Source: Clostridia bacterium
GTDB lineage: Bacteria > Bacillota > Clostridia > TANB77 > UBA1234
Length of the DNA: 64,000 nt
NCBI GenBank assembly: GCA_900765095.1
Contig: CAAFRB010000022.1
Span: forward strand, 9,109 to 73,108
Direction: 5' to 3'
In this document: positions 31,224 to 35,340 of the stretch, in pieces
How the letters are laid out: each line of letters starts with the position of its first letter
Numbering within the stretch: the stretch's first letter is position 1
Notes under the pieces: model-generated
Databases searched by the model: none
What the model saw: the letters and a program-made list of their open reading frames with translations, nothing else
Told to the model about the DNA's origin: nothing
Program-made: the position numbers and the translations under genes

Positions 31224-31345
31224 TATAAAATCAATCCTTTCTTACTTTCTCTGCTAATTTTTAATTTCAACCACATTATAATACCTAATGCCGTCAAAAT
31301 CTTATTTATTATCCTATATTTAGCAAAAAAAGTCAATAGTTATGT

Positions 31346-31387
31346 AAAAAAAATGATGACCGCCAAAATGGCAATCATCATTTTTTA
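31346..31387 (-). terminator. terminator after ankyrin gene 1 (paralog of the terminator at 33847-33885)
   Basis: Minus strand reads aaaaatgatgattgcc-atttt-ggcggtcatcatttttttt. Confidence 0.7.
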
Positions 31388-31469
31388 TGATAGAAAATAA
31401 AAGTTTTTAACCTCTTACCAATTGTATACCTTTCATATTGCAAGAAGTTTTAATTTATACGACGAGATG

Positions 31470-32411
31470 TTACTTAATTCTGTCCTTGTACAAGGCATAC
31501 CTTGCCATAGTAACAAGAGTTGCACGAATATAGTCATCATTCATAGAATTAAGTATGCAGTGTGCAACCATGCTTCCCATGAAGTTCTGTTTCTCCACAT
31601 CTGCCCCCGATTCCAAGAGGAGGTTAATAATGCGCACCTTATCCTGCGTGAAGCAAGAATCGGCATCAATGATGTCAACCGAATTAATATAATGTAACGG
31701 TGTATTACCACTCACATCAACGGCATTAACATCTGCACCTTTCCTCACCAACTCATAAGCAATGAAGGAACACGCATTACCTAACATGACATAATGCAAT
31801 GCTGTTTTTCCCCACTCATCTCTGCCATCAGGATCAGCGTCGTTTTTCAGAAGAATACTAACAGCAGGCCACAAGTTTTCAATTACCATTGTCTCCAACA
31901 TCGTAAGTTTCGGATGCTCGCTGCTAGTCAATTCTCCAATATTGAAGCCTTCTCTATAGAGTTTATTCAGAAATTCAGCTACCATGTCACGATTAGCACT
32001 AACCATAGATGCATACTCTTCAATAGTGATGTCGGCCTTCGCTCCTTGCGTGATATAAAAATCATAAACATATTTTTGATTTTCGCAAAAAGCCAGACTG
32101 ACAGGATCATCGCCGTTCTTATTCTTAATGGTGAAATCCGCACCGTGCCTAACAAGGTGCTCAACATTAATGAGATTAAACGTATACATCAGAGCAGTAT
32201 TGCCATCGTTATCCTGAGCATTAACATCCGCTCCTTCTTTCAGTAGGATGTCAATAATGTCAGGATTTCCTTGACGCATTGCCACCATAAGAAGCGTGAC
32301 GCCATTATCGTCAGTTTCTTTGACGTCAAGACCATTATCAATACACTCAAGTAGCAAGAATCTGCTCCATTCACAGATTGCTTTCTGTGCTTTCTCATAC
32401 AGCTTCTCCAT
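31470..32411 (-). CDS. ankyrin-repeat protein 1 (paralog of 33920..34948)
   Basis: ANK consensus stretches: DNGVTLLMVAMRQGNPDIIDILLKEGADVNAQDNDGNTALMY, GKTALHYVMLGN…LVRKGADVNAVDVSGNTPLHYI. RBS is AAAGGGG. No signal peptide. Confidence 0.88.
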   Translation of the reverse strand: MEKLYEKAQKAICEWSRFLLLECIDNGLDVKETDDNGVTLLMVAMRQGNPDIIDILLKEGADVNAQDNDGNTALMYTFNLINVEHLVRHGADFTIKNKNGDDPVSLAFCENQKYVYDFYITQGAKADITIEEYASMVSANRDMVAEFLNKLYREGFNIGELTSSEHPKLTMLETMVIENLWPAVSILLKNDADPDGRDEWGKTALHYVMLGNACSFIAYELVRKGADVNAVDVSGNTPLHYINSVDIIDADSCFTQDKVRIINLLLESGADVEKQNFMGSMVAHCILNSMNDDYIRATLVTMARYALYKDRIK

Positions 32412-32454
32412 TTGGTTACCCCTTTCAAATCTTAATGTCGATAATTATACACAA

Positions 32455-33366
32455 TCAAGTAGCATAACTTCTAATAGTCCACATAACTCTGGAATTAACA
32501 TTGTTTGCAAGCTTCCTTGCTGCAATCTGATATGGCGTTTCACCATATACATTCTTCTTTCGTGGATCAGCACCATTATGAAGAAGGATGTTCAAAACAC
32601 GAATCACATCATCATCGCAATTTCTCGTTACAATATAATGCAAAGGCGTGTTACCGTATCCATCAACGGCGTTCACTTCCGCTCCAGCATCAATCAGTTT
32701 GCGAACCACATCAGCATTAGCACCATTAACGACAGCATAATGCAAAGCTGGCATTCCATCCAACCCAGCCATGTTGGGATTTGCACCTAAAGTCAAAAGC
32801 ATATCAATGGAACCAGATGCATTTCGAGCAATAGCCCAGTTAAGTAAAGTACCAAACTTGCTCTTCTTATCCAGATAATTGACATCCATTCCGGAACTTG
32901 CAAGCAGATCAATAGTATCATTAGGAATTTTGTTAAAATCCATCAAAGGATTTAACCCCCATTTATTTACGTCATACTTTGCACCACTCCTCATAAGGAA
33001 ATCTGCTATATCAAAAAATCCTCTTTGTAGAGCTTCACAAAGTGAACTAGTTCCGTTATTGTTGCATTTATTAACATCTGCTCCATTGATAACTAACAGA
33101 CACACAGTATCAAAATTGTTAAACTGCACAGCATAGCTCAGAAGCGTACGCTCATTATAGTACTTGTTAATTTCAACTTCCTTTGCGAGCATTTTAGCAA
33201 AGACATCATCACTACCATAAATGGCAGCCTCAGTAATCAACGCTTTCCCATACTGGTCCTGCATATTGGGATCAAGACCATTTTTAAGATATTTGTCCAA
33301 CACCCGAAGATTGTTTTCTCGAATCACCTGTACTGCTTCTTCAAAAGAAACCTTCCCGTTAAACAT
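32455..33366 (-). CDS. ankyrin-repeat protein 2
   Basis: GMPALHYAVVNGANADVVRKLIDAGAEVNAVDGYGNTPLHYIV…LLHNGADPRKKNVYGETPYQIA. I prefer the ATG at 33366, 7 nt after AAAGGAGAA, over the GTG at 33390. Confidence 0.88.
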   Translation of the reverse strand: MFNGKVSFEEAVQVIRENNLRVLDKYLKNGLDPNMQDQYGKALITEAAIYGSDDVFAKMLAKEVEINKYYNERTLLSYAVQFNNFDTVCLLVINGADVNKCNNNGTSSLCEALQRGFFDIADFLMRSGAKYDVNKWGLNPLMDFNKIPNDTIDLLASSGMDVNYLDKKSKFGTLLNWAIARNASGSIDMLLTLGANPNMAGLDGMPALHYAVVNGANADVVRKLIDAGAEVNAVDGYGNTPLHYIVTRNCDDDVIRVLNILLHNGADPRKKNVYGETPYQIAARKLANNVNSRVMWTIRSYAT

Positions 33367-33518
33367 ACTGTCATTCTCCTTTCCCGTCACTAAAAATTAC
33401 TACTCATTTAACGCTTTTACACACATTGCCCTTTTCAAGCAATTCACCAGGTTACCATGAAAAATACTAGAACTATGCTAATGGTTCATTGGATTTCTCC
33501 TCCTTTTATTGGTCGTTA

Positions 33519-33551
33519 CTACAGCTTCACTTGTCCTAGAAATAAAATCAT
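33519..33551 (-). CDS. 10-codon upstream mini-ORF MILFLGQVKL in the leader of ankyrin genes 2 and 1
   Basis: The ATG lies 4 nt after GGAAGGAG. It is conserved with the copy at 35078-35110 (MILFLGRVKL). Confidence 0.4.
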   Translation of the reverse strand: MILFLGQVKL

Positions 33552-33585
33552 ATTTCTCCTTCCACAAGAATATCAATGCTAGGTC

Positions 33586-33614
33586 ATTATAATCTCTTTT
33601 CTCTATTATGTCAA
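33586..33614 (-). promoter_or_regulatory. canonical sigma-A promoter of the ank2-ank1 unit
   Basis: Minus strand reads TTGACA-17 nt-TATAAT (-35 at 33609-33614, -10 at 33586-33591). Confidence 0.65.
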
Positions 33615-33752: not shown

Positions 33753-33846
33753 GGAGCACACCGTGCTCCGCTATGAAAAGCAACAGGGAAGCTGAATTTT
33801 TTTGCTGTTCATTCTTTCGACTGAAAAGTAGAAAAGTTATCGCATG
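33753..33846 (+). repeat. degenerate copy of the intergenic repeat (module A plus decayed B/C)
   Basis: ggagcacaccgtgctccgctatgaaaag…gttcattctttcgactgaaaagtagaaaagttatcgcat. Confidence 0.65.
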
Positions 33847-33885
33847 AAAAATGATGACTGCCAATTTGACAGTCATCATTTTTTA
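33847..33885 (-). terminator. terminator after ankyrin gene 3
   Basis: Perfect 10-bp stem atgatgactg/cagtcatcat with a T-run on both strands. Confidence 0.75.
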
Positions 33886-33919
33886 TAACAGAAAGCAATA
33901 ACTATTTACTTTCTTATAT

Positions 33920-34948
33920 TTACGTACCTGGATTGTACTTTACATTAAGCTTATCCTTGTACTTTGGATAGGTTAGCTCATTAAGAAAAAGTGCATTAGT
34001 ATACAAACCATCTCCTCTATATGTAGGACCATCCCCACCCAAAATTACGGCACATCCTGCTTTTTGTCCATTGAGGTTTTTAATCTGCTCATCAGCACCA
34101 TGTTCCATGAGGAAATTAATAATACGTACCATATTTTGAGTAATGGAAGAATTTCTCATTTCAGGTGCTTTAACATAATGCAAAGGCGTATTTCCCTTTA
34201 CATCGGTAGCATTAACATCTGCTCCTGCACTCACCAATTCGTAAACAATCATCGAAGAAGCGTTATGAATTATAGCATAATGCAAAGCTGTTCTTCCATA
34301 ACTATCCTTAGTATTCGGATTAATGCCATTTTTTAGAAGCTTGCAGATGGGATCGTACATATTCTCCTTTACCAGCACATTCAGCAAAGTCGGGTACTGA
34401 GAAGCAGAATTTTGGGCATTTTCAAATTTAAAGCCATACTTGCAAAGCTTATTAAGAAGAGTAGTTGTATCCTTGCTACAACGGTTAGCCATAGCCTTAT
34501 ACTCTCCTTCAAGGATGTCACGCTTCGCCCCGTTTGCAACGTAAAAATCATAAATTTCTTTTTGATTTTGGTAAAAAGCCTTACTGACAGGATCATCATT
34601 ATCATCATTCCAAATATTAAAATCTGCCCCCCATTCAACAAGGCGTTTGACAATTGTAAGATTAGATGCGTACATTAACGCCGTATTGCCATTGTTATCC
34701 TGTGTATCAATGTCTGCCCCTTCTGCCAATAAGATGTCAATAATTTCGGGATTACCAACTTTCGCTGCTTCCATAAGAAGTGTGACACCATTCTTGTCAG
34801 ACATATCGGGATAGGCTCCGTATTTAATGGTCTCAAACACAAAAATACGGCTCCATTCGTAAATGGCATTCACTGCCCACTCATGCAGCACCTGCAGCGA
34901 AGCATTTTCAAAAGAAATATTTTCGACTGTAAAACGTGTAAAACGCAT
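33920..34948 (-). CDS. ankyrin-repeat protein 3
   Basis: KNGVTLLMEAAKVGNPEIIDILLAEGADIDTQDNNGNTALMY, GRTALHYAIIHN…LVSAGADVNATDVKGNTPLHYV. RBS is AAGGGAGA. Confidence 0.88.
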   Translation of the reverse strand: MRFTRFTVENISFENASLQVLHEWAVNAIYEWSRIFVFETIKYGAYPDMSDKNGVTLLMEAAKVGNPEIIDILLAEGADIDTQDNNGNTALMYASNLTIVKRLVEWGADFNIWNDDNDDPVSKAFYQNQKEIYDFYVANGAKRDILEGEYKAMANRCSKDTTTLLNKLCKYGFKFENAQNSASQYPTLLNVLVKENMYDPICKLLKNGINPNTKDSYGRTALHYAIIHNASSMIVYELVSAGADVNATDVKGNTPLHYVKAPEMRNSSITQNMVRIINFLMEHGADEQIKNLNGQKAGCAVILGGDGPTYRGDGLYTNALFLNELTYPKYKDKLNVKYNPGT

Positions 34949-35077
34949 GACAATTCTCCCTTCTCATCATTAAAGGTCGCTTTGCTCTTTTTCAAGCAAT
35001 CTCATCAAGTTACCATGAAGTGTACTAGAAACTACGCTAATTATTCATCAGCTTTCCCTTCCTTTTATTGGTCGTTA

Positions 35078-35110
35078 CTATAGCTTCACCCGTCCTAGAA
35101 ATAAAATCAT
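35078..35110 (-). CDS. 10-codon upstream mini-ORF MILFLGRVKL in the leader of ankyrin gene 3
   Basis: Hand-translated ATG ATT TTA TTT CTA GGA CGG GTG AAG CTA TAG. The ATG lies 4 nt after GGAAGGAG. Confidence 0.4.
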   Translation of the reverse strand: MILFLGRVKL

Positions 35111-35145
35111 ATTTCTCCTTCCACAAGAATATTAACACCTGCGTC

Positions 35146-35174
35146 ATTGTAGCATCTTTCCAATACTATGTCAA
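35146..35174 (-). promoter_or_regulatory. canonical sigma-A promoter of the ank3 unit
   Basis: Minus strand reads TTGACA-17 nt-TACAAT (-35 at 35169-35174, -10 at 35146-35151). Confidence 0.65.
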
Positions 35175-35340
35175 GTTTATATACCACCCCATTGCGCCCG
35201 TATCCTTGAATTTTACCGCATTTCTATTGAATTATTGTTGGTATAGCTAATTAACTTCTTCGCTTTTTTCGTCGTCCTCTATTAGCTTTGAATAGTTATT
35301 TGTTTTCATTAAAAGTGTTATACCATATAATATAGAACTT

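Follow-up and report, generated by a model that had tools for sequence, protein, structure and literature searches.

An ankyrin-repeat gene island of deviant base composition in the plsC-S1 spacer of uncultured gut Clostridia

In Firmicutes, ankyrin-repeat (ANK) proteins are not common, and most of the ANK proteins studied so far belong to intracellular pathogens and symbionts. Here, we analysed a 64-kb stretch of DNA from an uncultured gut Clostridia bacterium (contig CAAFRB010000022.1; the window) in which three intact ANK genes follow one another in the same orientation (minus strand) at positions 31224-35340, with plsC on one side and the gene for 30S ribosomal protein S1 on the other. This island is an orphan bacterial ANK-repeat accessory islet, an ordinary kind of accessory gene cluster. 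We interpret it, with about even confidence, as an accessory island that goes back to one old foreign gain, followed by duplication of a transcription unit, and whose products neutralise variable targets in a conflict setting. Among described systems, the closest precedent, by analogy of architecture, is that of the Imm-ank class, the ankyrin-repeat immunity proteins of polymorphic toxin systems, known from polyimmunity loci of Firmicutes (Zhang et al. 2012, PMC3482391).

The island and the Imm-ank class both present stand-alone, apparently cytosolic ANK proteins in Firmicutes, without catalytic domains, and both form tandem arrays of diverged paralogues with a content that varies between strains or species. 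The island differs in its surroundings. Pfam scans covered 36 of the 38 other long open reading frames (ORFs) of the window, those at 62145-63383 and 63455-63922 being omitted, and a 1826-aa ORF at 36725-42205 has no Pfam match on record; in the scanned ORFs, neither Tox-AHH nor any other toxin, LXG/WXG, type VII secretion system genes or SuFu/SUKH fusions were found. The resemblance to Imm-ank is architectural only. A second point of reference is given by the Legionella Dot/Icm proteins AnkH, AnkY and AnkX and the ANK proteins of Wolbachia phage WO, which share with the island the ANK fold, a foreign-looking composition and the expansion of paralogues, and which provided its best partial matches in NCBIfam and in the phage collection. 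These matches reach at most 32% identity and cover the repeats only, and the island has neither a secretion signal or system nor a prophage context. The third comparison is with small integration hotspots or genomic islets, which the island resembles in its conserved flanks, in a slot that is empty in relatives, in deviant G+C, and in cargo that changes by lineage (ANK genes, a metallo-β-lactamase (MBL)-fold hydrolase, a PDC-S01 ATPase, a small membrane protein). It departs from them in the absence of an integrase, tRNA, direct repeats or any other mobility signature at the island, and in the inheritance of the cargo, which within the ANK clade is vertical and diversifies in place, with ANK synonymous divergence (dS) of the same order as that of the flanks.

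The genes of the island and its flanks are as follows.

31470-32411, minus strand: ank1, 313 aa, type B, second gene of the ank2-ank1 unit; ORF with matches to the Pfam Ank families; G+C at third codon positions (GC3) 0.417
32455-33366, minus strand: ank2, 303 aa from ATG, type A; public gene calls also give 303 aa
33920-34948, minus strand: ank3, 342 aa, type B paralogue of ank1, with its own transcription unit
30138-31223, minus strand: 30S ribosomal protein S1 with four S1 domains, downstream flank; above the NCBIfam cut-off of NF005208
35341-35931, minus strand: plsC-type acyltransferase, upstream flank; Pfam match
35953-36627: cmk (cytidylate kinase), beyond plsC; Pfam match

An earlier reading made from the sequence alone had described three ANK genes of 313, 303 and 342 aa between plsC/cmk and rpsA. 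The ORFs and the Pfam matches agree with it, and the peptides that it quoted are present. The mechanically called ORF of ank2 extends to an alternative GTG at 33390, which would give 311 aa.

All three proteins exceeded the gathering scores of every Pfam ankyrin model, and no other Pfam family was matched. For Ank_2, whose cut-off is 27.3 bits, the scores were 83, 167 and 97 bits; E-values ran from 2e-23 to 1e-49. The AlphaFold2 model of ank2, with a predicted local distance difference test (pLDDT) score of 85 and a predicted template-modelling score (pTM) of 0.75, presented an unbroken stack of helix pairs over residues 8-290, corresponding to about 8-9 repeats. The model of ank3, built on a shallow alignment (pLDDT 66), consisted of two ANK blocks, a helical middle of low confidence and a disordered C-terminal tail. 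The best Foldseek matches were only designed ankyrin-repeat proteins (DARPins), ankyrins and the ankyrin-repeat clusters (ARCs) of tankyrase, at E = 1e-12. The products are, as modelled, pure ANK solenoids without a catalytic or export domain. The absence of a signal peptide, noted earlier, was borne out by hydropathy, as no hydrophobic N-terminus or transmembrane (TM) segment was present in any of the ANK proteins (highest 19-residue Kyte-Doolittle mean at most 1.43). As far as sequence tells, they are cytosolic.

Specific relatives of these proteins are few. In a collection of 5.8 billion proteins they were confined to a few members of the same clade, the rest being generic ANK proteins with at most 35% identity over most of the query. 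A search of 1.84 billion representative proteins with the non-canonical middle of ank1 matched nothing beyond this segment's own cluster. No specific ANK relatives occurred among GenBank phages or PLSDB plasmids (identity at most 32%). A phage or plasmid origin was considered and rejected, as viral contigs gave only three generic ANK matches, with 26-44% identity over partial lengths. By these searches, the family appears to be one without close relatives outside the clade and without a link to phages or plasmids.

The base composition of the ANK genes deviates from that of the window. The G+C of ank1, ank2 and ank3 was 0.411, 0.392 and 0.385, against 0.317 ± 0.021 in the 38 other long ORFs (z = 3.3-4.5), and the corresponding GC3 values were 0.42, 0.34 and 0.34 against 0.226 ± 0.043, while G+C at second codon positions was not raised. 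To correct for protein content, the expected GC3 of each gene was derived from the synonymous codon preferences of the window given the gene's own amino acids. The corrected excess amounted to +0.17, +0.09 and +0.10 for ank1, ank2 and ank3 (z = 5.0, 2.8 and 3.1), the top three values of 41 ORFs. Given that the excess persists after this correction, the deviation is not a mere by-product of the amino-acid content of ANK proteins. The earlier estimate of about 37-40% against about 30%, from which a foreign composition had been proposed, is close to the computed 38.5-41.1% against 31.7 ± 2.1%, and the foreign composition is confirmed. Two more ORFs of the window show a mild GC3 excess (z of about 2.2-2.3), at 17527-18171 and 43084-43599; one is a TetR-family regulator adjoining an MMPL transporter and the other is a DUF1980 protein.

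Comparison of the locus between genomes established how the island is distributed. An S1-protein scan of one genome per species yielded 21 loci, and further metagenome contigs were reached through the ANK proteins (loci are cited below by L numbers). In L004, L005, L025, L030 and L036, where S1 is 95-99% and BipA 96-99.7% identical to the window, the slot contains ANK genes. Where S1 is 81-89% identical (L006-L009 and L011-L013), plsC stands directly beside the S1 gene with a spacer of 89-220 nt and no ANK genes, and the Christensenellaceae-like outgroups L019-L023 likewise keep cmk-plsC-S1 without them. The ANK genes are thus dispensable to related lineages. The claim that the island was inserted into a conserved neighbourhood is supported by this pattern, with cmk, plsC and S1 contiguous in relatives and ANK genes limited to the subclade with an S1 identity of 95% or more. 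In L014 (S1 77% identical), the slot at 6312-7909 holds an AAA_14/DUF4143 ATPase, which is the PADLOC candidate PDC-S01 (E = 1.6e-113), together with a 78-aa ORF. This different cargo indicates that the spacer between plsC and S1 acts as a recurrent insertion site. These comparisons are most simply explained by a single ANK gain at the root of a small clade, the spacer concerned being one that takes up other cargo too. Since close relatives carry homologous ANK genes at the same position, the gain is old and common to about five lineages, and not recent. The sequence-only reading had named, as what would speak against it, ANK genes in all relatives at this position with native composition; the first half of this holds among close relatives, and the second does not, as the composition is non-native. 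The habitat is the human and the ruminant gut, with Hadza samples among the human ones.

Within the clade, the number of ANK paralogues per lineage is two or three, and the content varies. A tree separated two types, type A, which includes ank2, and type B, which includes ank1 and ank3. L036, of the same species as the window (dS of about 0.08), has the order ank3, then ank2-ank1, plus a gene for a 170-aa membrane protein. L025 carries type A followed by type B and L005 likewise A-B. L030 and L037 have an A-B unit followed by a unit of an MBL hydrolase and a further A-type gene (A'), and L004 has A alone followed by MBL-A'. Between lineages the ANK proteins share 40-64% aa identity, and the orthologue of ank1 in L025 (L025_2) is 59-61% identical to it. 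The paralogy of ank1 and ank3, which had been read from quoted peptides, was corroborated by an identity of 46%. In the tree, ank3 falls inside type B and branches below the group formed by ank1, L025 and L030. It follows from this placement that the duplication either predates those splits, with losses afterwards, or was succeeded by an acceleration of ank3.

The arrangement in the window comprises two transcription units, ank3 alone and ank2-ank1. The genes ank2 and ank1 are separated by a terminator-free gap of 43 nt and are therefore assigned to one unit. The elements that delimit the units are listed below.

33586-33614, minus strand: promoter of the ank2-ank1 unit; TTGACA, 17 nt, TATAAT, 12 of 12 consensus positions
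35146-35174, minus strand: promoter of the ank3 unit; TTGACA, 17 nt, TACAAT, 11 of 12 positions, with an extended -10 TG
33426-33624, minus strand: promoter-plus-leader block, ank2 copy; no Rfam match, folding z = +1.6
34982-35184, minus strand: promoter-plus-leader block, ank3 copy; folding z = -1.1
33519-33551, minus strand: mini-ORF in the ank2 leader, MILFLGQVKL and stop, preceded by the GGAGG-like AGGAG; read from the sequence
35078-35110, minus strand: mini-ORF in the ank3 leader, MILFLGRVKL and stop, read likewise; unchanged in strain L036
31348-31386, minus strand: intrinsic terminator of the ank2-ank1 unit; 18-bp hairpin, -21.9 kcal/mol, z = -7.3, followed by a U8 run
33844-33886, minus strand: intrinsic terminator of the ank3 unit; 17-bp hairpin, -22.3 kcal/mol, z = -5.8, followed by a U run
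35247-35335, minus strand: 3' remnant of a deleted 170-aa multi-TM gene, of which about the last 25 codons are left; intact copy in L036

The two promoter-plus-leader blocks begin about 10 nt upstream of the -35 box and are 81.8% identical over 203 columns, in agreement with the shared block of about 190 nt that the sequence-only reading had proposed for both units. A 73-column core of the alignment has 3 mismatches (96%), and a 38-nt stretch is identical between the copies and unique to them within the window. The same terminator had been predicted at both unit ends, and hairpins of 17-18 bp with about -22 kcal/mol were indeed found there. The block that follows ank3 (33824-33916, 93 nt) is 76% identical to 31328-31417 and continues into a decayed copy of the -35 region of the S1 promoter; the terminator of the ank2-ank1 unit is orthologous to the one that follows L025_2. 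A copied terminator block that runs into a decayed S1 promoter would be the trace expected from a tandem duplication of the whole unit. The decayed intergenic repeat of the earlier reading holds between the units, where it consists of the copied terminator and the decayed S1 promoter -35, and fails upstream of the ank3 promoter, where the sequence is the remnant of the 170-aa gene. In L036 this gene (2752-3264) is located between plsC and ank3, has no family match and a G+C of 0.25, and in the window it was deleted save for about 25 codons.

From these traces the following history can be proposed. A small clade of uncultured gut Clostridia would have received foreign ANK-encoding DNA a single time, in its common ancestor and in the plsC-S1 spacer, and the ancestral unit most likely consisted of promoter, leader, type-A ank, type-B ank and terminator. 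In the lineage of the window, the whole unit would have been duplicated in tandem, the copied stretch beginning ahead of the promoter and ending shortly behind the terminator. The upstream copy would then have lost its type-A gene, which would leave ank3 by itself, with ank2-ank1 after it. Gene conversion between the two leaders as a continuing process was considered as well and rejected. The paralogous leaders are 81.8% identical in the window and 81.4% in L036, the orthologous ones 98.3-98.4% between window and L036, and the paralogue-specific differences are common to both genomes, which means that no conversion has occurred since the strains split. With leader divergence of about 18% between paralogues and about 21% between window and L025, one old duplication together with constrained regulatory DNA suffices.

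Both island promoters are near-consensus sigma-A promoters and the region's two best promoter matches. A motif, GGAAAAATATGTATA-N4-CTTGACATAAT, lies upstream of the ank2 promoter and is conserved in L025 and L004. Its A/T-rich part GGAAAAATATGTATA is placed just upstream of the -35 box (33605-33634 in the window, 6877-6902 in L025, 4755-4780 in L004), occurs in the island promoters of three lineages and has no other occurrence in the window; either an UP element or an operator is conceivable. The idea of a mobile promoter cassette was rejected, given that AAAATATGTATA-N3-5-CTTGACATAA is restricted to the plsC-S1 slot among L001-L029, and its sole metagenome match, L037, has an L030-like ANK-ANK-MBL order.

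Several Gram-positive leaders, such as the cryIIIA STAB-SD and the ermC/aprE-type leaders, contain a 5'-proximal Shine-Dalgarno (SD)-like element that stabilises the mRNA. The island leaders, of about 190 nt, resemble STAB-SD leaders in having a 5'-proximal GGAGG-like element, about 26 nt past the -10 box, that is followed by a short non-conserved ORF of 10 codons and then by a second SD and a 3-codon ORF. The SD-like element occurs at the same position in 5 of the 6 island promoters inspected, across three lineages. In contrast to STAB-SD leaders, the element in the window precedes an ATG and a 10-codon ORF, so that a translated upstream ORF (uORF) is equally possible, and the element is known here from sequence alone. 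By analogy, the leader may serve as a ribosome-binding stabiliser at the 5' end of the mRNA or as a generic uORF. Near-consensus promoters together with this leader probably give strong constitutive expression, with the SD-like element possibly stabilising the mRNA.

Two further candidates for the leader were rejected. No Rfam family reached its gathering score anywhere in the window, and a permissive search (E ≤ 5) of 31200-35400 gave chance-level matches only (E at least 0.67); folding was no better than that of shuffled sequences, which disfavours a known regulatory RNA. An attenuator of the antibiotic type, controlled by a leader peptide, was discarded because the ATG and reading frame of the mini-ORF are lost in L025; alternative hairpins and an internal terminator were also lacking.

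The rates of evolution set the ANK genes apart from their neighbours. Between the window and L025, the flanking genes showed a non-synonymous divergence (dN) of 0.008-0.052, dS of 0.37-0.93 and a dN/dS ratio (omega) of 0.015-0.064, against dN of 0.23-0.29, dS of at least 1.2 and omega of about 0.19 for the ANK orthologues. Non-synonymous divergence was 10-30 times and omega 5-10 times that of the flanks. Comparison with L004 gave an omega of 0.25-0.31 for the ANK genes. Within the species (window against L036), omega was 0.16-0.31 for the ANK genes and 0-0.09 for the flanks, and the dS of ank2 was raised (0.21 against about 0.08). The paralogues ank1 and ank3 are separated by dN of 0.45 and dS of about 1.05, with an omega of 0.43. 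All ANK ORFs examined (12/12, from five lineages) were intact. The ANK genes are fast-evolving yet constrained, with omega of 0.16-0.43 and intact ORFs, and none is a pseudogene.

Variability along the fold was analysed using the repeat register, with canonical concave positions compared with exposed positions of the back face. The concave and back faces had variabilities of 0.52 and 0.51 in type A, and of 0.75 and 0.54 in type B (one-sided p = 0.051), and framework and core positions had a variability of 0.23. The binding face is not conserved between lineages and may, in type B, be the most variable part of the protein. This pattern fits either changing targets or weak constraint.

The sister islands add one more gene. 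A 249-aa MBL-fold hydrolase is encoded inside the islands of L004 (6116-6865), L030 (8253-9002) and L037 (516-1265), under its own copy of the island promoter, and an ANK gene begins 36-38 nt after it. Its closest sequences were BA1088 (1zkp, E = 1e-22) and B. subtilis YhfI (6kns, E = 1e-20), and its match to the NCBIfam model 'cyclic nucleotide-degrading phosphodiesterase' was under the cut-off. A precomputed Pfam label, Anti-Pycsar_Apyc1, was rejected for this gene, as phage Apyc1 was matched only at E = 0.14, or at 0.018 for the entry 7t28, and the PF23023 match was not reproduced in our own Pfam scan.

ANK products without a catalytic or export domain must act by binding other macromolecules. 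From their paralogues and turnover, their fast non-synonymous divergence with omega below 1, the unconserved binding face and the co-residence with an MBL hydrolase in sister lineages, we infer that these products are binders which neutralise variable targets in a conflict. They would accordingly be products of an immunity-type or phage-related kind, and not housekeeping proteins. The MBL phosphodiesterase under the same type of promoter in sister lineages and the PDC-S01 ATPase in the L014 slot offer weak circumstantial support for such a role.

A number of results count against a conflict role that followed an old foreign gain. No partner gene was found near the island, as neither toxin, secretion, phage, defence nor mobility genes were detected in the scanned ORFs of the 64-kb window. 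Matches in PADLOC, PHROG and NCBIfam were partial, confined to generic ANK repeats and far under the family cut-offs. In the PADLOC systems PDC-M72A and 'Ankyrin', they span only about 140 residues, the ANK part of models of 392-880 aa, and for MzaA (NCBIfam) they reach 45-49 bits against a cut-off of 800. The island does not belong to these known ANK anti-phage systems by such matches, and their partner genes are absent from the scanned ORFs. Regarding the gain itself, neither a mobility ORF within 31224-35340, a tRNA in the window nor direct repeats at the island boundaries were found. The branching of ank3 before the split of window, L025 and L030 burdens the duplication model, which then needs losses in sister lineages or an acceleration. 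The mRNA-stabilising role of the leader is argued from analogy. With gene-wide omega below 1 and a non-significant binding-face test for type A, positive selection is not demonstrated, and the rates are just as compatible with relaxed constraint on a gene of little use.

One alternative, which we regard as unlikely, is that the ANK proteins are eukaryote-like effectors released to bind host or protist proteins, as in Legionella, Coxiella, Wolbachia and sponge symbionts. The gut habitat of humans (including Hadza) and ruminants would suit such a role, as would the foreign origin, the expanded paralogues and the fast repeats with a variable binding face, and Dot/Icm Ank effectors were the best partial matches in NCBIfam. 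These matches, at 45-101 bits against cut-offs of 450-1400, reflect similarity of the repeat regions only. An N-terminal signal or TM segment is absent by hydropathy, and secretion-system genes were not found in the window scans; the cell has envelope proteins with SLH domains, and a known export route for folded ANK proteins was not found.

It is also possible, though doubtful, that the genes are weakly selected passengers, relics left by an ancient transfer, drifting without an important function in an intergenic hotspot that tolerates them. An omega 5-10 times that of the flanks, the turnover of gene content between lineages, a binding face no more conserved than the back face, and the confinement of the family, in a search of 5.8 billion proteins, to very few lineages are all compatible with drift. 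They have to be set against the intact state of 12/12 ANK ORFs over five lineages, an omega of 0.16-0.43 with conserved framework positions (0.23), consensus promoters and an upstream motif conserved across lineages whose flanks have reached a dS of 0.4-0.9, and a retained duplicate that still has its complete expression cassette.

A more specific version of the conflict role, which we consider quite improbable, is that of an unrecognised intracellular ANK immunity or defence array. Diversifying, constitutively expressed solenoids would capture phage factors or injected toxins, with the YhfI/Apyc1-like cyclic-nucleotide phosphodiesterase of sister lineages acting alongside under the same promoter. 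It is most improbable of all that the proteins are adaptors for their neighbours, for example regulators of S1, BipA, PlsC or Cmk, as this is suggested by position alone (between cmk-plsC and rpsA-typA, on the same strand), whereas relatives with the same neighbourhood lack the ANK genes, the island is equipped with promoters and terminators of its own, the supposed partners evolve 10-30 times more slowly than the ANK genes, and unrelated cargo occupies the slot in L014.

Whatever their function, the locus provides a clean natural example, in uncultured gut Clostridia, of a single old gain into a core-gene spacer, followed by duplication of an expression cassette, gene turnover and fast protein divergence beside nearly unchanged flanks. 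If the products are indeed binders in immunity or defence, an ANK-only module would be added to the conflict systems of gut anaerobes; otherwise, the island is one more lineage-specific accessory islet. In either case, the long-standing open questions are left untouched.

The remaining window is ordinary core genome, with BipA, QueA, Tgt, HisS, AddAB, MreB, LepA and MurC-like genes. The 1826-aa giant ORF at 36725-42205 (minus strand) has a Cys/His-rich N-terminal region and adjoins an SLH-domain protein at 42263-42856; it is kept clade-wide at 54-90% identity, including in ANK-free relatives. The possibility that it is a polymorphic toxin tied to the island was rejected on the grounds of this whole-length conservation and of the intervening cmk and plsC. 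In the ANK-free relatives L006-L011, about 2 kb of extra sequence, at about 4240-6520, stands between the giant protein gene and cmk and is absent from the window. Near the start of the window, 1155-8437 (minus strand) holds five consecutive ORFs of 785, 634, 272, 259 and 440 aa without a Pfam match at E ≤ 1e-5, which form an uncharacterised, operon-like block of native composition.

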